A model generated the notes under the pieces. That model was not told the origin of the DNA and searched no databases. It was given only the letters and a program-made list of their open reading frames with translations. Below are positions 3,719 through 62,915 of a stretch of 64,000 nucleotides of DNA, in pieces (the first letter of the stretch is position 1; each line of letters begins with the position of its first letter). A program made the position numbers and the translations under genes. Origin of the DNA: Octopus vulgaris (lineage: Eukaryota); contig OX597821.1 of assembly GCA_951406725.2 (NCBI GenBank), positions 75,082,001 through 75,146,000 of the forward strand, written 5' to 3'.

Positions 3719-4366
3719 GTATTACGAATACCTATCCTTTTCATGTTAAGAATCACCATGTGTTATGATGTTCCATTCTAAAAATGTTCTTGTTGTTGCT
3801 GTTGTTGTTCTCGTTGTTATTGTTTCTGCTGCTTTTGCTGATGTTGGATGTGATGAGCAGATGTCTGTAGCAGGAATTGGATTTACCAAGTTTAATATGA
3901 TAGAAAGCAAGTTCTTTTTCTATGTCTTATTTTATCAAGAAAATTCTGCGTAATGTTTGAGTGATTATTTTGTTAAGTTGGGGCTGGAAATAAGTGACGG
4001 TATTGAGCAATTTTTATATTTTATATAATTTTGTAAACATATCTTTTTTATATTTCAAACTGGACAATAGTAGGGGAAAACGATAGAAGCTGATGGTCCC
4101 AAACGTGACAGCTCTGAATATACTTTCTAATTGTTTGAAGAAATTCTGGAAATTTTGAAATATACATAGAAAAGATAAACACCGAAAAGCAATGTGGAAT
4201 TTTTCAGACAGACTTAAGCAGCAATAGATCAAAATCTGAAACTATAGATGGATCAACAGTAATTGATAGTTTGCAAGCCTTGATAGTTAGAAAAGTACAC
4301 TGGACACAGCGAGGCTTCCTCTCACATCTAAAACATATAAGTAGTATACCATAACATATAAGTGTT

Positions 4367-4765
4367 ACTCTTTACTCTTTTACTTGTTTCAGTCATTTGA
4401 CTGTGGGCATGCTGGAGCATCGTCTTTAGTCAAGCAAATCGACCCCAGGACTTTTCTTTGTGAGCCTAGTACTTATTCTGTCGGTCTCTTTTGCCGAACG
4501 GCTAAGTTACGGGGATGCAAACATACCACGGTCGGTTGTCAAACGATGTTGGGGAGACAAACACAGACACGCATACATATATATATATATATACATATAT
4601 ACGAGGGGCTTCTTTCAGTTTCCACCTACGAAATCCACTCACAAAGCTTTGGTCGGCCTGAGGCTATAGTAGAAGACACTTGCCCAAGGTGCCACGCAAT
4701 GGGACTGAACCCGGAACAATGTGGCTGGTAAGCAAGCTACTTACCACACAGCCACTCCTGAGCCT
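4367..4765 (-). mobile_element. tRNA-derived SINE, family A (CORE-like domain, internal microsatellite)
   Basis: Minus strand reads GGAGTGGCTGTGTGGTAAG...GGTTCAGTCCCA...GGCACCTTGGGCAAGTG and ends in (GAGTAAA)-type repeats. Several copies in the window. Confidence 0.9.
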
Positions 4766-5349
4766 ATATGTTATGTCATTTTAGTCAATTATCTCATTTA
4801 AGGAAAGACAGTGAATAATCTAGCATAAATATGTTTTTTTCGAGAAATGAATGACTATCATCTGTAACGTATGATAATCTTTCGACGAAATATGTGTGGG
4901 CTCATAAGATGAAAACTAAAATACCGATAGGTGATATGGTGTAGACTATTCCTGGTCTTCGAAATCTTTTTTAATGAATAGTGGGATACAATATGAGAAA
5001 TTATTCCAATTAAAATGGATATTTTGTGGGGAGTAGAATAATGATTTTGTAAGAGTACTTACTATAGACACTGATTGGTGTGTGGTGAAATTGCCCTTGC
5101 ATTTTCAGCGGCATCGCGTCTGGAATTATGAGTTTGGTATTTAACAGCGAGAATAACACAAGAAACTATACGCTGATACATCATGCATTTTTACACTGGT
5201 AGGTGTCGCCAAATATGGAAAGATGAAACATAGGCTTTAGTGTATAGAATACTGGAATTTGCCATAGCAGGTGGGGGAGGTACTGAGAGCATAGCTAACA
5301 GGTAAAAACAAGGATATTTTTACAGACATAGAGATCATAATAACCATAT

Positions 5350-6875: not shown

Positions 6876-6964
6876 TATTTTATTTATTACACTATTGTAT
6901 GACTGAGCGCCCTCGCGTCGATTCGATTCGTTTCGTTTCGTTTCTTCTTCTCCAAGTAAGATTT
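6876..6964 (+). repeat. 89-bp direct repeat, copy 1
   Basis: Identical to 7694-7782 (TATTTTATTTATTACAC...CCAAGTAAGATTT). Confidence 0.95.
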
Positions 6965-7418
6965 TATATATAATTATGACGCGAAACTCTATAACTCTTT
7001 GCTTGACCTTCCCTTCTTTCCCTATCTCTCTCTCTCTCTCTCTCTCACTCCTCCTCATCTCTCTCACAGCCGCTTGTCTTCCTCTATCTCTCTCTCTCTC
7101 TCACTCCTCCTCATCTCTCTCACAGCCGGCCGACTACTTCCTTTCGCCTGCGGCCTCCTAACAGTAAACACACGGTCTTCTTGCGCTCTTAAGAATCTTT
7201 CCTCGTCTAGGCCAGAAAAGGCCCTCTTTGTTTTCTTGTTTGTTTTTATTTCTTGTATTGTATTTTTTTGTATTGTATTTTTATTTTGTATTTTATTTTG
7301 TATTTTTTTTTGTAATTTTTTTGTATCGTTTTTACGTCCTGTTTGTGTCACATTTTTTTCTTTCTTTGTTTTTACCCCTCTGCGAAGTATTTTTATTTAA
7401 TTCTTTCGCAGGAAGGGC

Positions 7419-7492
7419 TAGTTCGACGAGTCGTGTTCTGTCCTCACCTTCGAAACACGCTGGAGTTGAACTAAGGACAGCTGATGAAGGGG
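7419..7492 (+). ncRNA. Candidate non-circularly permuted hammerhead ribozyme (order: site, GAAA, CUGAUGA)
   Basis: Stem III CGTGT 7432-36 / ACACG 7455-59; site GUU ending at 7437; stem I CTGTCCT 7438-44 / AGGACAG 7474-80; GAAA 7452-55; CTGATGA 7481-87; stem II CCTT 7447-50 / AGGG 7488-91; extra helix TAGTTCGAC 7419-27 / GTTGAACTA 7465-73. Confidence 0.75.
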
Positions 7493-7693
7493 TTTTTCCT
7501 TGTGTAGTTTGTCTTGTACTCTGTTTTTTCGTTGTTAAAAAAAGGTCCGTTCCATGCTTGTTTTTACGTTTTCGTTTCTCGTTGAGGTCTACGTCTATTT
7601 GTGGTGTCCTGTACTCACGTATATATATTTATATATGCATGTTTATATACATGTAGATGTAGGTACGTACATATATGCATGTATGTATGCATA

Positions 7694-7781
7694 TATTTTA
7701 TTTATTACACTATTGTATGACTGAGCGCCCTCGCGTCGATTCGATTCGTTTCGTTTCGTTTCTTCTTCTCCAAGTAAGATT

Positions 7782-7782
<1 letters not shown>
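7694..7782 (+). repeat. 89-bp direct repeat, copy 2
   Basis: Identical to 6876-6964. Confidence 0.95.
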
Positions 7783-7878
<96 letters not shown>

Positions 7879-8135
7879 AATAGGGGTTATAGTATATATG
7901 CATGAATATGTTTATGTATGCATAAATCTGTAAGTTTGTATCTTTACCTTAACTAGAATAAAACAAAAAAAAAAAAGAGAAATCCTTCCAAAATTCGGTT
8001 AATATAATCTATTGTTTACTCTGTTTACCGCTAATGAATTCGTAAATAACTTACAGCTTCCACCGTTCGGTTGCCTGGCAAGAACACAACGAACGAATCT
8101 ACTACGACATCATAAATTGATAATTATTCACCATG

Positions 8136-9795: not shown

Positions 9796-9796
9796 A

Positions 9797-10033
9797 ATAC
9801 CTATTTTTTACTACCCACAAGAGGCTAAACACAGAGAGGACAAACAAAGACAGATACACGGATTTAGTCGATTATATCGACCCCCAGTCCGTAACTGGTA
9901 CTTATTTGATCGACCCCGAAAGGATGAAAGGCAAAGTCGACCTCGGCGGAATTTGAACTCAGAATGTAACGTTAGACGAAATACGGTTACGCATTTCGCC
10001 CGGGCGTGCTAACGTTTCTGCCAGCTCGCCGCC
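9797..10033 (-). mobile_element. tRNA-derived SINE, family B (Deu/Nin-like central domain)
   Basis: Minus strand reads GGCGGCGAGCTGGCAGAAACGTTAGCACG...GAGTTCAAATTCCGCCGAGGTCGACTTTGCCTTTCATCCTTTCGGGGTCGA. Confidence 0.9.
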
Positions 10034-10520
10034 ATTACTAATACCACCACCAACACCACCACCACCACCACCAACACCACCACCACCACCATCGTCGTCG
10101 ACAACTCAGAAGGGGAATTATTATTTCCAGATTTGCTTATTGTAACAGCTATTACTTTCCTGGGTAATATTTTGCCAGTGACCTGGGTTGTATTGTTGCT
10201 GTTCGTCTTGCTGGTGTTATAAGCATTTTCTTCATTCTTATTCGGTGCAAAAATATCGATTACTCTCCAGAAAACTACCAATAACACAATTACCCATCAC
10301 CACTAATTCTTCCAAATCTCCAAGCCTGCAAAAATAAAAAAAGAAAAGCAAGAAAATTTCAGAAAAATAAAACGGAAAACACACAAGAACACAACGTTCT
10401 ATATTCTTACTTGGAAAATGGTTCATAAAGTTGCCCAAAATAGCTGAGAATGTTGTCTTTTAATATACTCGGATATTCTTTTCGTTGCATAGATTCCGTT
10501 TTTTTTAATATATTTATATG

Positions 10521-12870: not shown

Positions 12871-12896
12871 TTTACCCTAGAAATTTTTTTATCAGT

Positions 12897-13068
12897 GTAG
12901 GAGCGGCTGTGTGGTAAGTAAATTGCTTACCAACCACATGGTTCCGGGTTCAGTTCCACTGTGTGGCACCTTGGACAAGTGTCTTCTACTATAGCCTCGG
13001 GCCGACCAAAGCCTTGTGAGTGGATTTGGTAGACGGAAACTGAAAGAAGCCCGTCGTATATGTGTATG

Positions 13069-13136
<68 letters not shown>

Positions 13137-13366
13137 TGTGTGTGTGTTTGTGTGTCTGTGTTTGTCCCCCCAACATCGCTTGACAACCGGTGCTGGTGTG
13201 TTTACGTCCCCTTAACTTTGCGGTTCGGCAAAAGAGATCGATAGAATAAGTACTAGGCTTACAAAGAATAAGACCTGTGGTCGATTTGCTAGACTAAAGG
13301 CGGTGCTCCAGCATGGCCACTGTCAAATGACAGAAACAAGTAAAAGAGTAAAAGAGAGTAAAGAGT
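12897..13366 (+). mobile_element. tRNA-derived SINE, family A
   Basis: Full-length copy matching 4367-4765, with an internal (TG)n tract. Confidence 0.9.
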
Positions 13367-15211
13367 GAAAAATGCATTCAAGAGCTGTGCTTTTTTTTTT
13401 ATCTTGAATGGAAACATCTTTGTGCATCACTTTACTAGAGAACAAAATGTCGTATTGAATTTTATGGATAAAATATACAATAATACACTAGTGGATATTA
13501 TTGTGTATTTTATTATTCTGTAACCAGTGACAGGAAGATGAAATTGAAATCGTCTGAGCGTAAAGAAACTTATAGTAATTCGGTACAGAGGTGAATAGAG
13601 GGCGTTGTTGAGGTCATTTCTTGTTGGTTGTCCCACTTTTAGTTGTGTGACACAGTGTATTTGGTTGAAATACACCTTGGTACCATTTGGCGATATTTCT
13701 TTTCTGATGGTACCCAAAAGTAATCAATCGAATCCTTTGGCTCATCACGTGGCTGTGAGGGGGAGGGGATCAGTCATTAGTGAAGAAGGAATTAAAGACA
13801 AGCCTGAGTAAGTTTCACCACTGACTATTTTTTTTCAGAGATTCTCGAACTGTTGAGAGGAGTTATTGTCAAAGTGGTCTAAGGTTTAGACTTAACTAAA
13901 AGCAACAAAATGCCAGATGTTGTAACTGATTTCATCACACTTCTATGCGATACATCTAGGTCAGCATCATGTTAACGTTTCTTTCTTATTTTGTTTTCCT
14001 TTTTCAAGGTAGAAAGTTGTGATTGTAGTGAATTAGGTTGCTATTTCTTGTGGACCGCGCAGCTATGTAGCGGCTTTCTTATTGGTTAATAATTCTAAGA
14101 CATTACTCTATTCTGGGTTTACTGAAATGCTACACAAGATTCGAAAAATTAACTCTGTTATTCACATACACACACGCACACACACACACATCCATACACA
14201 CACACACACACACACACATTCTACGCACAAAAGTACATATACACTCTCGCGCGCGCGTTTGTGAATGTCTGTATTTGTTCATGTCTTACAAATTACGTGG
14301 TTGCTCTATTATAAAGTATATTCAAATGACTGCGGGCTGGGTTTATGGCTTTTGTAAGTCCTCCAAAACTCGTATGACTAATGAGGCTAAATGCTCATTT
14401 AAAAAAATTCAAAACCTGTAAGACACTGGGTGCGAAGACAATTCCAAAAGACCGATATTTGGAGGTAAATGAAATGGGAAGAGAGGTTCGTGAAGAATTA
14501 GAGATGAGGTTAAAAGTACAAGAAATTAGTATAACTGGTCAGATGGTACCAGCTTGCTCGGGAGGAGTTGAAGATATTGTAACTGTAGCCGATAAGTAAC
14601 TCCGAACAGACTGCACATCTAGAGGCCGAAATTAGTTGGGGAGTGACCCTCTCTCTTAATTTGCCTTCTAACCTGACATCATTAACTATAGATTAATAAA
14701 TATAGGTAATTTGTATTGAAATTCTCATTGAAATGGTTGATAACTATACCCGGAAGCTATGTAATCTCGTTCTCTTTTCTATTTTTCTTTCTGCTAGCTG
14801 TCTTTTGTCTGTCTGTTTGTCTCTTTCTCTTTCTCTCTGTTCCCCGCCTTCTCTTTCGTTCTCTGTCTGTCTTTCTGTCTGTCTGTCTGTCTGAATCTCT
14901 CTGACTTGACATATATAGTATCATACTTTGATACTGTATGGACTGAGATCTCCGTTGACAGACTCATGATATTAAAGAAAGTGTTAACACGTTATGCAAA
15001 TTAGTTTCTCCGGCTCTCTCGTTGTTACTCTTGGATTTGTTGATTATATAGATAGACTAGCTGTTACTCTGGGTCTGGTCAAATTGATGAGGACACTTCT
15101 GACGAGAACCAAATCAGCAGCAAAAATCGATGAAAGATGTTTATAATTGTTTTCAGTCTATGGAGAAATATTTAAAACTTACATATACATATATACTACA
15201 TAGTTTACATA

Positions 15212-20686: not shown

Positions 20687-22082
20687 ACTTCGTGAGTGTG
20701 TGATTATGTGTTAGTGTATATATATTTATATACATAACCGTTGATGTTTGTGAATGATTGTCGACCTACTTTTGCAAGGAGGTTTAAAGGTAAACGACAC
20801 CGATGCATTTAAGACAATCTCGCCGCTTTCGAACTGTGAAACGGAGATGAACCGACAAACAAACTGTAGGGAGAATCCGAATGTCATAATACGGCGTTAG
20901 TTTAGTGTAGGCGTCAGTGTGTTACACAGAAACGTCATCTTTCTATATTTGACAATATTCTTAGCGTAACCTAATTCTTGTACCCTGATACATTTGCTTG
21001 CTATGTCTGCATAAAAAACTTTGAAGCTTTCCATAATAGGTGTTTCTTGGAATATAATGCAGAAATAAATAAAAAAAAGGAATGAATACTTGAAAGAGGA
21101 TGAAAATTTTGCAGTCTCCAGGCAAAATGAGAAATCTCTTTGGTATCACGTCTGTGCCTGTTTATCATTCAGTCGTCAGTAACATTTGCATAACCATCAG
21201 AATGCCATGACAGAAGAGAAGTGTTATATCAAATGCAACAGAAGAGGGAACATAACCAGGTGACACTGGGAATGGAATTGTAGAAATATCAAAAAAAAAA
21301 AAAAAAGCTAAAAGGAAAGAAAGAAATGGGACGCGTCTCAAAAAAATCTATCCGACGTTTATCTTAAACTCTTCCTGAATTATAGAGAAGAAGAGTGTTT
21401 TTTTAGTAAACGTGCCATCGTGGATCCTGAAAGTGCCATTGTACAGGATATGAATGGTATCCTCATTTACCAAATACCATTCCTATTCACACTAGTTAAC
21501 GTTAACGATGCTGATAAATATCTAACATTGTCTAACAAATCTCTGCAGCTCACTGCTGCTGTCCAACTTCATAATATTCTAATAAACTTTGGTGCACCTA
21601 TAAACTTGCTAAGAATTTGGATGCACCAAAAATCTGTAACAGTACAAGATTACCTGCCACAAATGTTATATTCTATGTGATCTAACGCGTTATTATGACG
21701 TCAGTGTGCCAAATGAGAAAATGTTTAAATTCCAAGCATTTCCTTCGACCCATCAGATATGTCATTTCTGTAACAACGCCTTCGGGTTCCAGTGACAATG
21801 CCTATTTCCTATGACCATTATCAAGCTTTACGCAGAGTCCCTCAGGCTTGGAGAAGTTGAACTGACAAATCCATGTTCATCTCACACATGGCCAGCTTTA
21901 TTTTGCGTGATCACTTTTTGAGACAGAGCCAACAGCCTTTCATATTAAAATTTTGTCTACGCTACAACTCTAAACCGAACAATACGCATTCTTGTTAGAA
22001 TTACTTCCGCTCAATATGTTGCATATCAATATAGAATTACGAGAAAATATATAAGCTAAAACAACGATAGTATTTACTGAAG

Positions 22083-22673
22083 AAGGCGGCGAGCTGGCAG
22101 AGACGTTAGCACGATGGGCGAAATGCTTAGCGGTATTTTGTCTGCCGCTACGTTCTGAGTTCAAATTCCGCCGAGGTGGACTTTGGCTTTCATCCTTTCG
22201 GGGTCAATAAATTAAGTACCAGTTACGCACTGGGGTCGATATAATCGACTTAATCCGTTTGTATGTCCTTGTTTGTCCTCTCTGTGTTTAGCCCCTTGTG
22301 GGCAGTAAAGAAATAGGTATTTCACCCGTCGCTACGTTCTGAGTTCAAATTCCGCCGAGGTCGATTTTGCCTTTCATCTATTCGGGGTCGGTAAATTAAG
22401 TACCAGTTACGCACTGGGGTCGATGTAATCGACTTAATCCGTTTGTCTGTCCTTGTTTGTCCCCTCTGTGTTTAGCCCCTTGTGGGTAGTAAAGAAATAG
22501 GTATTTCACCAGTCGCTACGTTCTGAGTTCAAATTCCGCCGAGGTCGATTTTGCCTTTCATCCATTCGGGGTCGATAAATTAAGTACTAGTTACGCACTT
22601 AATCGACTTAATCCGTTTGTCTGTCCTTGTTTGGCCCCTCTGTGTTTATCCCCTTGTGGGTAATAAAGAAACA
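22083..22673 (+). mobile_element. Family B SINE trimer: one head plus three bodies of about 183 bp, inside a 17-bp TSD
   Basis: TSD GATAGTATTTACTGAAG at 22066-22082 and 22674-22690; bodies restart near 22317 and 22500. Confidence 0.9.
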
Positions 22674-23033
22674 GATAGTATTTACTGAAGTCACGAAATT
22701 AACATTATGAGTAAAAGCATTATGAGAATTCCCTCATATACGAGAAACAGGAAAAACCCAAGTGACACATGTACTCGCATTACGCAAACAAAATATACGC
22801 AAATATATCTGAAAACGTGCTACACATTCTGCATATTTAAAAACATGTTTAAATGAGTTTGTAGAGAGTTGGATCTTTTAAATTTAGCAAAAACGAAATT
22901 GTTTCTACTCATTCACACACGGCCTTTCGCCGAGCACACACATGGATCTTAACTGAGTGGTATTTGCTTCTCTTCTTCTTGACAACATACCGTCAATTAC
23001 AAGATGATGGTACAAATATATTTGGTATCCATA

Positions 23034-32998: not shown

Positions 32999-33038
32999 GT
33001 ATACACACATATTCCCGGCAAGTTTCTTGCCGGTGCCT

Positions 33039-33113
33039 CCAGAGTGGAAGCAATATTATCGATAATGGCCGAAATTGCGTTCAGCCCTCTGGTCGATAAC
33101 TGATGAGCAGTTG
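33039..33113 (+). ncRNA. Candidate non-circularly permuted hammerhead ribozyme, second family
   Basis: Stem III GCAAT 33050-54 / ATTGC 33074-78; site AUA ending at 33055; stem I TTATCGA 33056-62 / TCGATAA 33093-99; GAAA 33071-74; CTGATGA 33100-06; extra helix CCAGAG 33039-44 / CTCTGG 33087-92; upstream hairpin CCGGCAAG/CTTGCCGG at 33015-33033. Confidence 0.75.
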
Positions 33114-33289
33114 GAAATCTTCTGTGTTTTCTGTTCGCCTGTGTATTTACTACACATTTTCTTAATTATATATATAGGTGTGTTAAATTTTCCTTTGTGC
33201 CTTTTTATTTAATCCTGAAATACATGTGCGTGTGTGTATGTGTGTATATATATATATGTGTGTGTATGTGTGCATGTAGGAGCGTATTC

Positions 33290-36716: not shown

Positions 36717-39139
36717 TATATATATGTGTGTGTATGTATATGTGCATGTATATAGATGTCTATACATATGTTCAAGCATTATGTAATATCGAATACACAC
36801 AGTTATATACTGTCTATGAATGATCAAGCGAAGCTACTTTGATAAAAGTTTAAAATAAATTTCATCACTGTGTGTGTGCATACGTGTGTGTGTGTATGTG
36901 TGTGTATGTGTGTGTGCGTGCGTGCGTGTGTGATTATGTGGTGAATTGACAAGTATGCAGAAAGGATCACTGACCGTTGATAGCCATAGCAATAAACATG
37001 TACAGCGCCACTATGTGGACCACTGGTCACTCACGTCTACAAGAGCAGATCTGAAGAATGTCATCGTAGGTTCTGATTGTCTGCCAACATGTGCTGTGGT
37101 AATAAAATTTACATACTGTTTAGTTATGTCTGTAGCAAAGGTGCACATAACCTCTTCAGTTGTTGTTGTTGCTGCATTTACAGGAAATCCTATTGGGAGT
37201 GACATGTAATGCTGAAGTGTCGGTGGTGGGGCGGCCACCGAATTAATGCGGCTCTTACGCGCGCGTATTATATGTATACGTACATACATAGATACGTAGA
37301 TACATACATACATACATATACACATAGATAAATGTATGTATATGCCAAGAGAGAAAGTGAAAGAGAAAGACAGTGAAAGAAAGTTCCTTATATGTGTGAG
37401 GGATAAATGCGAAGCTGTAAATGTTTCTATGTGAGAGACAAGGAGGGAGAAGGGGAGGAAAAATTGCTGCTCTTCTTGTTGCTGCTGCTGCTGGTGATGA
37501 TGATGATGATGATAATGATGATGATGATGATGATGATTACATATAATGCAACTGTATGTATATGTCATATATATATAAGTGTATGCGTTTCGAAAGTGAG
37601 AAATTGGATTTTGTTCAGCAACCTGTTAATTTAAACGCTTCATTTCTCACAACAGAATATTAATTTTATTACTACTTACACAGTTTGGAATATTAATTAT
37701 ACAATCATCGATTTTAGTTGTATTTTAATTAATTTCTACTTCCTACAGTTGTAGCCGCTGGATAATTCTCAGAGCCAGACTTGAATGAGCAATAATATTC
37801 ATCTAACCATAATATCTATAAGTTATCATATTGCTTAAAGGCAGGTATGCATGATGGAAAAATCTACTTATCGTTATGTATTTCATACCAAATTTCTATT
37901 TGTCGTTGCAGGCATCCCATTTGGGTTTAAAATAGTAACATTATGATAACATAAAATGTAATTACCCATCTAATTTCACGATTATTACATACCTAAATAT
38001 ATCAAGGGAAACGGCGTACGTCTATATTCACTTCCACGTTATTGTTTTAGAGAGGATTAACAGCTGATTATCTGTTAAAATCCTTTTCTTAAAGAAAGAG
38101 TCGAGACTGATAAATGATGGTGCAGTTGGATAAAATATCGAACAACAAACCGAGAGGTTAGCGGCTCGAATCGTGTCATCGGTTGTTGACATATTAATGG
38201 CATTCGTTCAAAATATTTCATAATCAATGTTTGATAACATCGTATATTGGCTTCATTAGCAGCCGGAAAGCACTATTGCTACACATATAAAAAAAACATC
38301 ATTGAATTCCACCTACAAATAATAAACTGTAGGTTTCTAAAAGCCTGAAGGTCGGTACAAATACTTTCCCTCGCCATTACCGAGTATCTCTCCTGGCGAA
38401 CACACGCCCACAGCGCAGAAAACGACAAGGTCTGTAACACATAGACAGAACTTCCGCTGCAGGGACAGGAAATATACGAAGTCCCCCTTAGTAATTTCTA
38501 ATTGTCTACAAAACACACGTAAGCCACACTCTTGTTTACTAGTCCCCATATCTAGAATATTAATGCTGTTACAACTAAGAACATTCAAGATCACTTACAA
38601 AAATATGTGAAGTGGTTTTTGAGTACACTTAAAACACATACGGTTTTTATCATCTGCCTGCCTGCCTGCCTGCCATTCTGTCTGTTTGCTTGCCTGTCTG
38701 TCTGTCTTTTTAAAACATTTGCAATATGGCCTCTGCTCAGAATTGACTGATAACATACCATTTCCATTCACGTACTACCTCTTGGCCTTCTTTATCCCCC
38801 CCCCTACTCCATTATGCTCCACTCAGAATCGTACTAAATGAGTTTCCACCTGTTTTTTTTTTACCGGAATGTCGAATTTCTGGGGGGTTGTCACTCTGTA
38901 CAAATTGCTTACTTTAACGATTAACTTGTAAGTATTTAAGAGGGAAACTAACTACATCGACATCCGAGGGCTTGCGAAGGCGTCGGGCACAAATTTCCAC
39001 AAACACAAATAGATATACAACTAAATCAGGAACAGCATAATTTACCCTGTTAGCAGCAGCTGAGCCGAATAATTGTTGAGGTGAGTAATTAATTACTTTA
39101 ACAGAAATATTAAACCACCATAAACTAGTATAATATATA

Positions 39140-39352
39140 CTTTACTACTCTAGGCTCACGACCAGAAATTTTGGGGGGAGGGGGCCTGTCGATTAGAAAG
39201 ATCTCAGTATGCAACTAGTACTTGAATTTATCAACCCCGAAAAGATAAAAGCAAATCGACCGCGGCAGCATTTGAACTCAGAACGTAGCGGTAGACGAAA
39301 TATCGCTATGCATTTCGTCCGGCGTGCTATTGGTTCTGCCAGCTCGCCGCCT
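39140..39352 (-). mobile_element. Family B SINE
   Basis: Matches family B; imperfect TSD TAACTAGT(A/G)TA(A/T)TATATA. Confidence 0.85.
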
Positions 39353-39410
39353 TAACTAGTGTATTATATAAAACACATGCATGACTTAAATTTTACATCA
39401 TACACAAATT

Positions 39411-40005
39411 CCCATCAAAAATTCTTTCCTACTCTAGGTACAATGCCCAAAATTTTTAGGGAGGGGGGTCAGTCGATTAGATCGACCCCGAAATGACGAA
39501 AGGCGAAGTGGATCTCGGCGGAATTTGAACTAAGAACGTAAAGACAACGAAATATCGCTAAGCATTTCGCCCTGCGTGCTGACGTTTCTTATTTCTTTAT
39601 TGCCCACAAGGGGATAAACATAGAGGGAACAAACGAGGACAGACAAAGGGATTAAGTCGATTACATCGACCCCAGTGCGTAACTGGTACTGAACTTATTC
39701 GACCCCGAAAGGATAAAAGACAAAGTCGACCTCGGCGGAATTTGAAGTCAGAACGTAGCGACAGACGAAATACCTATTTCTTTACTACCTACAAGGAGCT
39801 ATACTCAGAGGGGACAAAGAAGGACAGGCAAACGGATCGAGTCGATTATATCGACCCTAGTGTGTGACTGGTACTTAATTTATAGACCCCGAAAGGATGG
39901 AAGACAAAGTCGATCTCGGCGGAATTTGAACACTGAACGTAACGGCAGACGAAATACCGCTAAGCATTTCGCCCGGCGTGCTAACGTTTCTGCCAGCTCA
40001 CCGCC
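39411..40005 (-). mobile_element. Family B SINE multimer inside an 18-bp TSD
   Basis: TSD TTACATCATACACAAATT at 39393-39410 and 40006-40023; three B-box-containing bodies. Confidence 0.85.
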
Positions 40006-40462
40006 TTACATCATACACAAATTACGTTAGTACCAGATTAACGGAGCATAGACATCCTTGACAGCACAAATGAAATTTACTAAATCCGATACACTAATCA
40101 GTATTAGAGTTTAATCTCTATATAAGTGGAGCCATATCTAGTAAGGTAAATTGTTACAAGTTGAAATTATAATATATTTCACTGTTTGATGTTCTGCGAG
40201 AGAATCTTGGTAGGAGAATCTTTCGACAACCTCATATAGAGCTGTTTGGCTAAATGATGCCGTCTGTGGCGATCGATTGAAACATCTCCGTCTTTGTGAA
40301 TTGGCATATCGTGGAATGTTATTCTTTGAAGTTTAACCCTCTGAAAGCTTGGACTACCAAATTGTGTCGCTACTTCATAACATGATATACATACATAAAC
40401 ATGCATTACATATATATATATATATATATATAAATATATATATACTTATATACATATATATA

Positions 40463-40593: not shown

Positions 40594-40705
40594 CATACAT
40601 ATATATACATATATATAACATACATATCTAAATATCGCTATCTATCTTTCTGTCTGTCTCTCTATCTGTCTATCTATCTATCTAGCTAGCTATCTGTACA
40701 TATGT

Positions 40706-41092
40706 GCAGGAGTGGCTGCGTGGTAAGAAGCTTGCTTCCCAATCACATGATTCCGGATTCAGTCCCACTGCATATCATCTTGGGCAAGTCTCTTTTACTA
40801 TAGCTTCCGACCGACCAATGCCTTGTGGGTTTTATTTGCAAGATGGAGACTGAAGGAAGCCCGTCGCGTATATGTGTTTGAGCGTGTGTGTGAGTGGGTG
40901 CTTGTGTATGTGTGTGTATGTGTCTGCTTGTGTCTGTGTTTTCCCCACCACCACTTGACAAAGGGTGTTGATGTACTTATGTACCCGTAACTTAGCGGTT
41001 CAGCCAAAGAATCCGATAGAATAAGTACCAGGCTTAAAATTTTTTACTAGGATCGATTCTTTTGACTAAAAAAAATTCACAGAGGTGGTGCT
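40706..41092 (+). mobile_element. Family A SINE
   Basis: GCAGGAGTGGCTGCGTGGTAAGAAGCTTGC...GGATTCAGTCCCAC...TTGGGCAAG. Confidence 0.85.
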
Positions 41093-47670: not shown

Positions 47671-49156
47671 ACTAAGTATGTGTGTGTGTTTGGCTTTGTG
47701 TGTGTATTTGTGTATGTGTGTATGTGTGTATGCAAATGGACATTTCACGATCTCATATATGTAGATCTAAAGGCGTGAAGGCAATAATTATGTTAAGCGA
47801 GCCAAATGTATCACGTTATACATTAATCGCGGGATTATTGGCGTAAGAATAGCAGCTGATAGTTTCCATACATTTAGAATCATACGTTGAATCGCTGAAA
47901 GGTAGTGAATGCCTTATGAATTCAATCCGTTCGAACTAACGCAAGAAATTAAAATAGATGTGAAAGTACAGGAAAAGTTTGAAATGCTATCGTGATGGAT
48001 ATTCGTGGTTTGTGCTTAGTGTTTTGTTAGATGTGAATCTAAAGGGTAAAAGGTAAGTGTTAATTAGCACAATACGGAAAATAGTATTTAAATATCAAAA
48101 TAAAAAGACATAATCATGTTAGTATTTATTTGAGAAAATTTCATCCGAGATAATATTTGTTTATGAAAATAACCACGCAAGAAATCTGAACTACCATACG
48201 GATATTTGTATTAATATAGATAACATTTAATAGGTATATAGACAAGTCTGTATATTTAATCTCAGCTCAATTAGACTGTAACATGATATTATAAACAATA
48301 AAAAAGATCAATAAAACTATTTGATCTTTAGTATTATCTTGACGATATACAATATTGTATCCAGTGTACAATTAAAACCAGACTATACAAAATACAAGGT
48401 GATAATCGTATTATTATATTAAAATAAATTATAATACAATACAGTTCAAAATAATTATATAGAAGGTGTTATTTGATTGAATTATTATTATTTTAGATTT
48501 ATCCTCCTCCGTTCCAAATTCAAAATATATTTAATATGTTATATTATTTTGGTGTTATCTTACATGAAAAGGAGGGACAGTGCCCATGAATATTTTACGT
48601 GTAAGATAGGAGGTGGGGGCAGGTTAAACTTAGAATGATGACTGGCCACGACGCTTGTAAAAGAGAAGGCTCAGCCAAATCCCCTCAAATGGCAGGTGTT
48701 TTAAAATGGGCGAAGGATGAAGTCTGCCGACAAACAACGACAGGTTTCTGACAACGTGCTTTTTGAAAGTTTCCGTCTATAACAATATTTGTATATTAAA
48801 TTATATGTATACATCCGTAGATACAGGAGCTTTCTGACCAAATATCATCTGATACAAGAAAATTTGGGATATTACACGTACACTCTGATAAATCGGGAAA
48901 TCTTTACCATTTATACACAGACACACACACATACACATATATGCATGTGTGCGTATGTGCGTGTGTGTGTATTTGAATATATAGTAAAACCGTAAAGCAG
49001 TTTGTCAGGAAATTCCCTCCCACATTTCTGCGGACATTTATGGTATAGAATGAATGTCATCGCGCTGTTATTTAATCCAAAGTTTGTCATTCTAACACTT
49101 AGAAATATTTCACTTCTGATTTACGTTCATTGTGCCGAAAATAGATTCTCTCTCTT

Positions 49157-49537
49157 TAACTCTTTTACTCTTTCACCTGTTTCAGTCATTTTGACTGCGG
49201 CCATGCTGGATCACCGCCTTTAGTCGAGCAAATCGACCCCAGGACTTATTCTTTGTAAGCCTAGTACTTATTCTATCGGTCTCTTTTGCCGAATCGCTAA
49301 GTTACGGAGACGTAAACACACCACCATCGGTTGTCAAGCGATGTTGGGGACGCACACACACACACACACACACGCACACACACACATACATACACATATA
49401 TATACGACAGGCTTCTTTCAGTTTCCGTCTACCAAATCCACTCACAAGGCTTTGGTCGGCCCGTAGAAGACTCTTTCCCAAGGTGCCACGCAGTGGGACT
49501 GAACCCGAAACCATGTGGTTGGTAAGCAAGCTACTTT
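49157..49537 (-). mobile_element. Family A SINE
   Basis: Matches 4367-4765. Confidence 0.9.
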
Positions 49538-55388: not shown

Positions 55389-55707
55389 TTAAACAGCCCT
55401 GCATTCAGTAAAATGTTGCTGCAGCTGAAAATTATTTCATATATTTTTAGCGAATTTCCATAAGAATACGGACCAGGTTCTAAGCCAGTAGGCTGACAGA
55501 ATCGTTAGTACGAAGGACACAATACCCAAGAGCATTTATTTCTTTTCATCTTTGTAGTGTCGATAAAATAAAGTACTAACCAAGTGCACGGTCGATGTAA
55601 TCGCCATGCTTGCCCACCCTCTGATCTGCTACACTTAAACCCGTTGTTCGGGCCGATATCCCGTTCAACGGGTATGTTGTGATTTCGGTTATTTATTCGC
55701 AATGGAA

Positions 55708-56445
55708 GACGGCGAGCTGGCAGAGAAGTTAGCACGCCGGGCGAAATGTTTAGCCGTATTTCGTCTGCCGTTACGTTCTGGGTTCAAATTCCGCCGAGGC
55801 CGACTTTGCCTTTCATCCTTTCGGGGTCGATAAATTACGTACCAGTTACGCACTGGGTACGATGTAATCCACTTAATCCGTTTGTCTGTCCTTGTTTGTC
55901 CTCTCTGTGTTTAGCCCCTTGTGGGTAGTAAAGAAATAGGTATTTCGTCCTTTTCTAAGTTCAGTGTCCAAATTCCGCCGAGGTCGACTCCGCTTTTCAT
56001 CTTTTTGGGGTCGATAGATTAAGTACCAGTTGCATACTGGGGTCGATATAATCGACTGCCCCCCCCCTCTCCCAAAATTTCGAGCCTTATGCCTAGAGTA
56101 GAAAAGAATCGTTAGCACGCCGGCCGAAACGCTTTGCGGTATTTCGTCCGTCGCTACGTTCTGAGTTCAAATAACGCCGAGGCCGACTTCGCCTTTCAGC
56201 TTTTCGGGGGTTGATAAATTAAGTACCAGTTGCATACTGGGGTCGAACTAATCGACTGCTCCCCACTCTCCGAAAATTCCGGTTCTTTAGCTTAGAGTAG
56301 AAAAGAATTGTTAGCACGCCGGCCGAAACGCTTTGCGGTATTTCGTCCGTCGCTACGTTCTGAGTTCAAATTCCGCCGAGGTCGACTTTGCCTTTCATCT
56401 TTTCGGGGTTGATAAATTACGTACCACTGAAACACTGAGGTCAAT
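55708..56445 (+). mobile_element. Family B SINE tetramer
   Basis: One full head at about 55708 and B-box bodies near 55780, 55960, 56160 and 56360. Confidence 0.85.
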
Positions 56446-56700
56446 GGTGGGTTCTGTGATGGTTCTGTGCTTAATTTAAGACTTGAAAGAATGTGATGTG
56501 TTCTAGCTGAGGTAGCTTTTTTTGATACAGTTTAGATTCCAGGTAGAACTATACCTATATTCTATTATTTTGTATAGCGACGTCGCATGATGTTTCTCAA
56601 TTGTTTTCTTATAAGAAGGCAGGAAATTTAGTATCCTGTTCAACGTTCCACGATACGTTCTGATTCCATAGTTCCGTGGCTGTTTAGCACATAGTCAATG

Positions 56701-57369
56701 TACAGGGAGGCCATAAAGTGACGCACCATCCTGCAACATGTGAAATTGCTAACATTCTTTATTTTATCTCTTTACACAACTGCCGATATTATAAACCAAT
56801 CCTCATTGGATCGAGGCGGATAATCAACAAGGCAGGGGCAAGATAATTGCGTGGTGTGGGATTTGGCACAATCAAGTAATTGGACCATTTTATTTTGAGG
56901 GATCTGTGACAGGTGGTTCGTGTCTCGACATGCTTGGCAAGAAGATGGTGCCTCACGTAAGCATTCACTTAGAAAGGGAAATCCTCTCTGGTTTCAGCCG
57001 GATGGCGCCCCGCCCCATTATGCACTACAGGTTCGTTATTTTCTGAATGAACATTTTCCAGGGAGATGACTCGGGTGTCGTGGCCCAATTGAAAAGGCAC
57101 CACAGTCACCAGATTTAACTCCCATGAACTTTTTCTTCATGGGATACATTAAATCCTTTGTATATTCTGAAAAGATTTGTCACCAAGGACATCTTCTTTT
57201 ACTCCTTTATTCTTTTACTTGTTTCAGTCGAGCAAATCAACCCCAGGACTTATTTTTTGTAAGCGTAGTACTTATTCTGTCGGTCTGTTTTGCCGAACCG
57301 CTAAGTCACGGGGACGTAGACACACCAGCATCGGTTGTCAAGCGATGTTTGGGGGATAAACAGAACACA

Positions 57370-57445
<76 letters not shown>

Positions 57446-57820
57446 CGACGGGCTTCTTTCAGTTTCCGTTTACCAAAACCACTCTCAAGGCTTTGGTCGG
57501 CTCGAGGCTATAGTAGAAGTCACTTGCCCAAGGTGCCACGTAGTGGGATTGAACCCAGAACCATGTGGCTGGTAAGCAAGCTACTTACCACACAGCCACT
57601 CCTACGCCTATCTTCTTCAAAGAATTGTTAAAGCGCGTGAACAAGTCAACAGCAATGAAAAGTTATTTGAGAGGGTTCATCGCAATTTCAAATTCTGTAT
57701 GAACACTTGTTTAGAGCTCCATGGCCAACACTTCGAACATTTGTAATGGATTACCTACTTCATTGCAAATAGAGCATACTTGATATCTCCCATGGTGCGT
57801 GGCTTTGTGGCCTAACTGTA
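56701..57820 (+). mobile_element. Internally deleted Tc1/mariner (rosa/DD41D-like) transposon interrupted by a SINE
   Basis: TIRs TACAGGGAGGCCATAAAGTGACGCACC and GGTGCGTGGCTTTGTGGCCTAACTGTA. Motifs WCGIWHNQVIGPFYFEG, WFQPDGAPPH, SPDLTPMNFFFMGYIKSFVY and HGQHFEHL*. Confidence 0.85.
57199..57609 (-). mobile_element. Family A SINE nested in the DD41D-like element
   Basis: TSD ATCTTCTT at 57191-98 and 57610-17. Confidence 0.9.
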
Positions 57821-62406: not shown

Positions 62407-62688
62407 TTTGAGCAACACAAGAGGAAATAAAGTAAAATAAAGTAAAAAGTGAAGTCAAAAACTATGGACTTATAATATAGAAACATTTAACAAAGTATTT
62501 ACACTGGCGTGTAGATTGGCTTAGGGACAAAACAGCTGTTACCTTAAAGATTTTAAAGAATTCATTTCTGAGTGCCATGAGGTGAGGGGTCAGCTTCTAC
62601 TACGACAATGACTGATAGCCGTGTCCGAAGGAGGAGCCTACTGTGACAATGGAAATGGTAGTTTGCATCATAATATATAAATATATGC

Positions 62689-62719
<31 letters not shown>

Positions 62720-62754
62720 CATACCTACATATATATGTATATATACATGCATAT

Positions 62755-62915
62755 ATGGGTACAGGACATCAAAACAAAAACCATAATGAGAAACGAAAAC
62801 AAAAACATAGAAACGAACTTTAATTTCAACCAACGAAAAAACAGAGAAACGAGACATGCAACATAAAGAATATTCCCCTTCTTCAGTTGTCCCTGTTTCA
62901 TGAAGGGGCATCCAT
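62755..62915 (-). mobile_element. Decayed relative of the 7419-7620 permuted-hammerhead element
   Basis: Minus strand CCCCTTCAT-GAAAC-AGGGACAA-CTGAAGA-AGGGG, followed by a tail homologous to 7490-7620 (CTCTGTTTTTTCGTTG...GTTTTCGTTTCTC...TGTCCTGTAC). Confidence 0.7.

Follow-up and report, generated by a model that had tools for sequence, protein, structure and literature searches.

We have identified, in a 64,000-nt stretch of the Octopus vulgaris genome (the window, meaning the whole stretch of DNA analysed), a motif at 7374-7493 that is probably a hammerhead ribozyme near the 3' end of a non-autonomous Penelope-like retrotransposon, with a design related to that of Naiad elements. We provide comparative evidence that its stem II has apparently been replaced by a gap-free four-way junction of the catalytic core, two helices (IIa and IIb) and a hairpin (H), and we consider it likely that this four-way form is the active ribozyme. 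The proposal draws on sequence, covariation, the structure of genomic copies, a link to Naiad reverse transcriptase (RT) genes and an excess of copy 5' ends close to the predicted cut. The motif would be a variant within a known class of ribozymes, with good comparative support, and may be the ribozyme that Naiads, a whole group of retrotransposons, were thought to lack.

A hammerhead core in a non-circular block order

The core bases of a hammerhead are present on the forward strand: GAAA at 7452-7455, CUGAUGA at 7481-7487 and a GUU triplet at 7435-7437, after which the RNA is predicted to be cut. Stems I and III abut this core, as expected of a hammerhead with CUGAnGA, GAAA and an NUH triplet. 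The blocks follow the non-circular order cut site, GAAA, CUGAnGA, known as type SGC. A first-pass annotation of this DNA had proposed a permuted hammerhead cut after 7437, and its core coordinates, GUU site, stem III and hairpin strands all hold, as do the permuted order and 7437 as the predicted site.

Stem III is formed in the window copy by 7432-7435 and 7456-7459 together with an A7455-U7436 pair, so that its 3' strand and the triplet occupy 7432-7437, a placement supported by covariation and by the triplets of subfamilies. The segment 7447-7459 holds a strand of helix IIb (7447-7451), GAAA and the 5' strand of stem III, and 7475-7493 holds the 5' strand of stem I (7475-7480), CUGAUGA and a strand of helix IIa (7488-7493), both segments being assigned from sequence and covariation. 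Stem I pairs 7438-7444 with 7474-7480, and an additional helix, P0, pairs 7419-7427 with 7465-7473 with one G-U pair.

Position 7474 is G in 32 of 34 aligned copies, and G also predominates there in four public runs (assembled contigs covering parts of the unit); the A of the window copy is nearly private to it. Thus, in the family at large, P0 has 10 bp with a C7418-G7474 pair (strands 7418-7427 and 7465-7474, the latter placed by family comparison, the helix pairing in families A-D despite their different sequences), stem I has 6 bp (3' strand at 7438-7444 in the window copy, from aligned copies and covariation) and the linker has 3 nt. The perfect 7-bp stem I and the 9-bp P0 with one G-U pair reported earlier therefore describe the window copy correctly, P0 being a real helix, but not the family; the short link from stem I to the strand before GAAA is likewise present, at 3 nt in the family rather than about 2.

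A descriptor covering all six block orders found one site in the 64,000 nt, the motif at 7374-7493, and none in 60 block-shuffled windows searched on both strands. The Rfam profile search of the window returned no match at gathering score, and the Rfam hammerhead models returned none on 7300-7600 at E values up to 10; this is expected because the block order is non-circular.

An apparent four-way junction in place of stem II

The hairpin at about 7380-7411 had been listed as a separate upstream item, and the motif as spanning 7419-7492. We found instead that the hairpin covaries and that its flanks pair with both strands of the supposed stem II, which makes it part of the fold and extends the motif to 7374-7493. 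Upstream of the hairpin, 7374-7379 pairs with 7488-7493 as IIa, as seen from covariation and the majority sequences of families; downstream, 7412-7416 pairs with 7447-7451 as IIb, with compensatory change in three of five pairs, and G7412 would replace G10.1. Between these two partner strands lies H (7380-7411, with strands 7380-7386 and 7405-7411), a predicted arm of the junction with a U-rich loop of variable length and compensatory change in five of seven pairs. Both joints of the junction are gap-free, with no unpaired base, in the majority sequences of family A, to which the window copy belongs, and of families B, C and D. Families B, C, D and E supplied the sequence variation for these comparisons, D and E being unrelated to A in sequence.

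Across 17 sequences from about eight subfamilies, a set from which family D, misaligned in the cross-family alignment, and one other row were left aside for the covariation tests of the junction and of stem II registers, IIa, H and IIb were paired in 92% of 306 cells, and slid controls of the same alignment were paired in 37-55%. Both-side changes affected 10 of 18 pairs (41 cells), and none of 500 shuffles scored as high. Stems I and III showed both-side changes in eight of nine pairs (42 cells; three family D rows are gapped at stem III), again with no shuffle of 500 as high. Such cell counts overstate the number of independent events because the subfamilies are related. While the stems vary, the catalytic bases and a valid NUH triplet (GUU, GUC, GUA or AUA) are all retained across subfamilies.

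Some families could form a conventional stem II if one extra A is allowed after A9: in families A-C this helix is 97% paired with five both-side changes, a level reached by 2 of 500 shuffles (17 sequences). As a single helix from after A9 to before G12, however, it fits neither family D, where two pairs can form at most, nor family E, where one or two can, whereas the four-way pairing fits all families. Family E, unrelated in sequence, was found after the junction model had been built; its IIa is paired in 123 of 149 cells and its IIb in 109 of 120 with one bulged U, against at most 56 of 119 for any direct stem II. The register preferred in the first-pass annotation, with one extra C before GAAA, did no better than shuffles (262 of 500 as high), has one pair broken in 6 of 17 sequences, and disagrees with family E and with the majority sequences.

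Calculated nested energies on the window sequence were -21.1 kcal/mol for the junction set, compared with -11.3 and -11.7 kcal/mol for direct stem II variants with an extended hairpin, a difference of about 10 kcal/mol in favour of the junction over either. The nested fold of 7370-7500 was not unusual (z -1.0) and lacked IIa and IIb, nested folding being uninformative for a structure with several pseudoknots. A junction search reached 14-15 of 15 in 44 of 85 real copies, truncated copies included, and in 2 of 425 with shuffled upstream sequence, a moderately sharp separation.

These comparisons suggest a fold in which the strand after A9 would pair with 7374-7379 and the strand before G12 with 7412-7416, so that stem II would not be one helix, and the core, IIa, H and IIb would meet in a four-way junction. 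By analogy with four-way junctions in general, IIb would stack under the G12-A9 pair in the place of stem II, and the backbone would leave the core after A9, a point where hammerheads are known to tolerate extra bases, to form IIa, probably stacked on H. P0 would brace the far ends of stems I and III. As different strands would pair with the bases that follow A9 and precede G12, the topology would fall outside the six block orders thought possible.

A rather unlikely alternative is a two-state switch, in which the active form would be an ordinary type-SGC hammerhead whose direct stem II is short (the extra A after A9, then G-C, G-U, G-U and G-C) and the four-way pairing would be a conserved inactive state that limits cleavage. 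The pairing and covariation of that helix in the 17 sequences would suit such a switch, as would the extra base that published SGC-1 likewise has after CUGAUGA (PMC10085705, supplement oligos) and the many copies that run through the cut site (about half, see below), which imply that much template was uncut; extra bases after A9 are also known in Penelope-like hammerheads, according to passages of PMC4209133. The near absence of the helix from families D and E, its absence by eye from three published Naiads and its lower predicted stability argue against it, and we continue with the four-way form as the probable active ribozyme.

The host repeat

The motif lies in a non-coding, Penelope-like unit of about 818 bp, recognized by comparing the period and shared ends of 30 loci. 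The window holds one such family A unit (6966-7783, forward strand, ends approximate), whose longest ATG-started frame is 61 aa, preceded by a 3' piece of another (6876-6965, forward strand) in a partial tandem of pseudo-LTR-like appearance; 6876-6972 and 7694-7790 are 99% identical over 97 bp. A (TA)n run followed by (TG)n at 7784-7880 of the same strand is the likely insertion target: 27 of the 30 loci end at one of two places, after a short tail in 18 and about 70 nt earlier in 9, all running into TA repeats. The 5' ends are variable, and partial tandems and inverted 5' pieces occur among the 30 loci.

The passages of PMC8557442 on the subject give 5' truncation, tandems, inverted 5' pieces and an optional tail as marks of Penelope-like elements, and family A shows these together with fixed 3' ends, as a non-autonomous member of that group would. 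The presence of two 3' ends agrees with data on a Poseidon element, for which the relevant part of PMC11167929 shows two starts of reverse transcription.

The unit is abundant. In the 2.8-Gb genome (227 contigs), a 131-nt query gave 1,455 candidates, of which the 40 scored had 95-100% identity, and a degenerate core pattern gave 9,810 matches, against 11 for the reversed control. The first 100 core-pattern matches form about eight larger clusters and several singletons.

Genomic 5' ends near the predicted cut

A pattern located some 130 nt 3' of the cut had 2,053 matches, and we placed the 5' ends of 98 copies among the first listed, all on one contig. The 5' end lay within -5 to +20 of the cut in 24 of the 98, or 0.017 per nt against 0.003 both upstream and downstream (ratio 5.5, binomial p 4e-9); the zone was picked after seeing the data, yet it is also the top 25-nt window. 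The ratios were 7.0 and 9.7 after dropping 16 copies judged doubtful by eye (internal deletions, local duplications or subfamily mismatches) and 14 inversion junctions. In a second sample of 100 copies anchored on the core, which shares a few loci with the first, 18 of 93 ended at +6 to +10, two of these being internal deletions, and the end rate dropped about tenfold upstream of -5.

The peak sits at +7/+8 rather than +1. Few 5' ends fall at other helix edges (two at IIa and one each at stem I, P0 and H), with nine close to the 3' edges of stems III and IIb; together with the position of the peak, these nine suggest that polymerase stalling may contribute. Since about half of the copies run past the cut site, RNA that was uncut, or had been re-joined, must also have served as template. 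TA microhomology was considered as a cause of the pile-up and fails on the window's own sequence.

The pile-up hints at a fossil trace of cleavage. It would be best explained if templates were cut at 7437, copied as far as the new end and trimmed when joined, with a possible addition from stalling. The RNA would be cut after 7437 in part of the transcripts, and cut RNA used as template would yield short copies with 5' ends at or just 3' of the cut. The two products would be held together by about 25 base pairs, which makes re-joining or circle formation plausible. If this is correct, the excess is rare genomic evidence on the role of a ribozyme during transposition.

The fold could also be kept for another job, such as binding a retrotransposon protein, RNA stability or template switching, with little or no cleavage and with RT stalling in the knot. 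We regard this as improbable: a peak at +7/+8 would suit it, as would the weak in vitro activity of metazoan Penelope-like hammerheads reported in passages of PMC4209133 and the finding, in the part of PMC11167929 concerned, that hammerhead cleavage is not needed for insertion of a Poseidon element in vitro, but the stems change around an intact set of catalytic bases and a valid NUH triplet, the edges of IIa, I, P0 and H have few ends, and the excess goes no further than the cut site. That one ancestral repeat acquired the arrangement by chance and was amplified with no selection is very improbable and appears largely refuted by covariation, since every helix has compensatory changes across subfamilies and in the sequence-unrelated families D and E and the descriptor found nothing in shuffled windows, even though all copies are related and the nested folding energy is unremarkable. 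A ribozyme cut in part of the transcripts thus remains our preferred reading.

The inversion junctions at three loci (L294, L308 and L155) fall on the strands of stem I, which suggests fold-back or template switching through the ribozyme's own complementarity.

Relation to Naiad elements

Naiads are reported to target (TA)n and to lack canonical hammerheads, although some contain a whole or half core that no descriptor matches; in the parts of the report concerned, eight annotations read 'half-core' and several 'core', and these are left unexplained (Craig et al. 2021, PMC8557442). Family A and the Naiads of that report are alike in their (TA)n target, 5' truncation, partial tandems, inverted 5' pieces and optional tail, and Naiad 3' untranslated regions (UTRs) in the Octopus vulgaris genome have the same ribozyme layout as family A. 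Unlike Naiads, family A has no open reading frame (ORF), and so neither N-terminal GIY-YIG, DKA motif nor RT, and it has no sequence similarity to the Naiad 3' UTRs that were fetched.

The genome contains 523 exact matches to a 17-nt core motif of the two Octopus Naiad consensus sequences, and none to its control. The ribozyme fold lies 3' of the end of a Naiad ORF, within 1.5 kb, in 13 of 30 loci, and downstream of divergent Naiad RT matches in 4 of 16. A survey by eye of part of the 54 consensus entries in the supplement of PMC8557442 showed the four-way SGC layout with P0 terminating Naiad_Obim, Naiad_Ovul, Naiad-2_Movir, Naiad_Plae and Naiad_EuTe. In these five, as read by eye, GAAA is always preceded by a C that pairs with the first G 3' of the hairpin, and in the last three a direct stem II would oppose C to C.

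Six further entries in the surveyed part, from nematodes, show type-CSG hammerheads, again by eye, cleanly formed and with stems I and II joined by a helix: Naiad-1, -2 and -3_Nbra, Naiad_Hcon, the entry preceding Naiad-1_Nbra (Naiad_Parc by table order) and the entry preceding Naiad_Lpol. By eye, no hammerhead core was seen in Naiad_Ppla, Naiad_Dcar and Naiad_Omin. Among arthropod entries of the same supplement we also noted further CUGAnGA cores in S-G-C-like order with other peripheral helices.

These observations lead us to lean towards a broader proposal, that Naiads across animal phyla carry non-circular hammerheads invisible to standard searches: CSG forms in nematodes, and in a cephalopod, a box jellyfish, an acanthocephalan and a clam shrimp an undescribed four-block form with a four-way junction, which would be active and cleave in vivo, its cut site imprinted in thousands of genomic 5' ends. 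This would give a testable answer to the seeming lack in Naiads of the ribozyme found in other Penelope-like elements.

No intact Naiad that could drive family A was found among 55 of 55 scored candidates, nor among 150 of 3,070. The genome does contain a young Penelope-like family with intact ORFs of 753-782 aa and copies about 99% alike (L132:1294-3552, reverse strand, and also L133-L135), in which RT is followed by a cysteine-rich endonuclease-like region and the 3' UTR holds CUGAAGA flanked by possible stems, with no GAAA. It is a possible driver of family A; four of its loci had no 3' sequence in common with families A-C.

Relation to known ribozymes

Type-SGC hammerheads (HRIMA-1 and variants) were described in 2023 from metatranscriptomes only, with none in genomes of known organisms (Eckert et al., PMC10085705). 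The Octopus motif shares their block order, a link of about 3 nt after stem I and an intact core, and its cut position is assigned by analogy; the idea that this covalent link joins stem I to the strand before GAAA was already published for type SGC in that work. Eckert et al. had two CSG sequences only and assumed that CUGAnGA must lead straight into stem II, whereas our family comparisons favour a block broken by the split of IIa and IIb around a hairpin. Type SGC further has a direct stem II and a helix joining stems I and II, from the sequence before stem I to that after stem II; no such helix occurs in the Octopus motif, in which the strand pairs with the 5' leader as the extra helix P0, and the host is an animal retrotransposon.

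Retrozymes and the minimal hammerheads of Penelope-like elements, as presented in passages of PMC4209133 and bioRxiv 10.64898/2026.07.22.740005, resemble family A as non-coding, ribozyme-bearing repeats of a few hundred bases with ties to Penelope-like elements. They are of type I, one per unit of a tandem array and often as dimers, whereas family A has a complete non-circular monomer of order SGC in dispersed, mostly truncated copies, with a second same-strand ribozyme piece in 2 of 30 loci. The models in the part of the 2026 retrozyme preprint concerned are of type I only (bioRxiv 10.64898/2026.07.22.740005).

A literature search, largely at abstract level and with most subscription journals outside its scope, found no report of non-circular hammerheads in animal genomes or Naiads, and none of stem II giving way to a four-way junction. 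Nothing similar appears in passages of Forgia 2023, a 2019 review and a 2026 preprint, and hammerhead variants that have additional helices are noted in a passage of a 2026 paper, with Weinberg et al. 2015 as its source. Within that scope, the family would be the first in an animal genome to combine a non-circularly permuted hammerhead with a high copy number. Descriptors that include the four-way topology could expose many missed invertebrate ribozymes.

The natural form of the hairpin ribozyme has a gap-free four-way junction beside its catalytic core, which docks two loops. That ribozyme is of a different catalytic class, and the Octopus junction would substitute for a helix of the core.

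Other features of the window

A second ribozyme copy, of family E, lies at 33010-33115 on the forward strand, with an AUA triplet at 33053-33055 and the same layout (a predicted four-way SGC fold) in unrelated sequence; it is probably copy 2 of the first-pass annotation. Family E is non-coding and has 624 candidates in the genome, and family D includes decayed RT and DKA pieces. A 5'-truncated family B piece at 62671-62900 on the reverse strand retains the CUGAAGA half only.

The window contains no tRNA gene. It holds five copies of a dispersed repeat of about 400 bp (4365-4767, 12895-13371, 40700-41039, 49146-49536 and 57223-57611), and another dispersed repeat shows partial tandems of an internal unit of about 184 bp (9796-10043, 22082-22677, 39137-40011 and 55702-56446).
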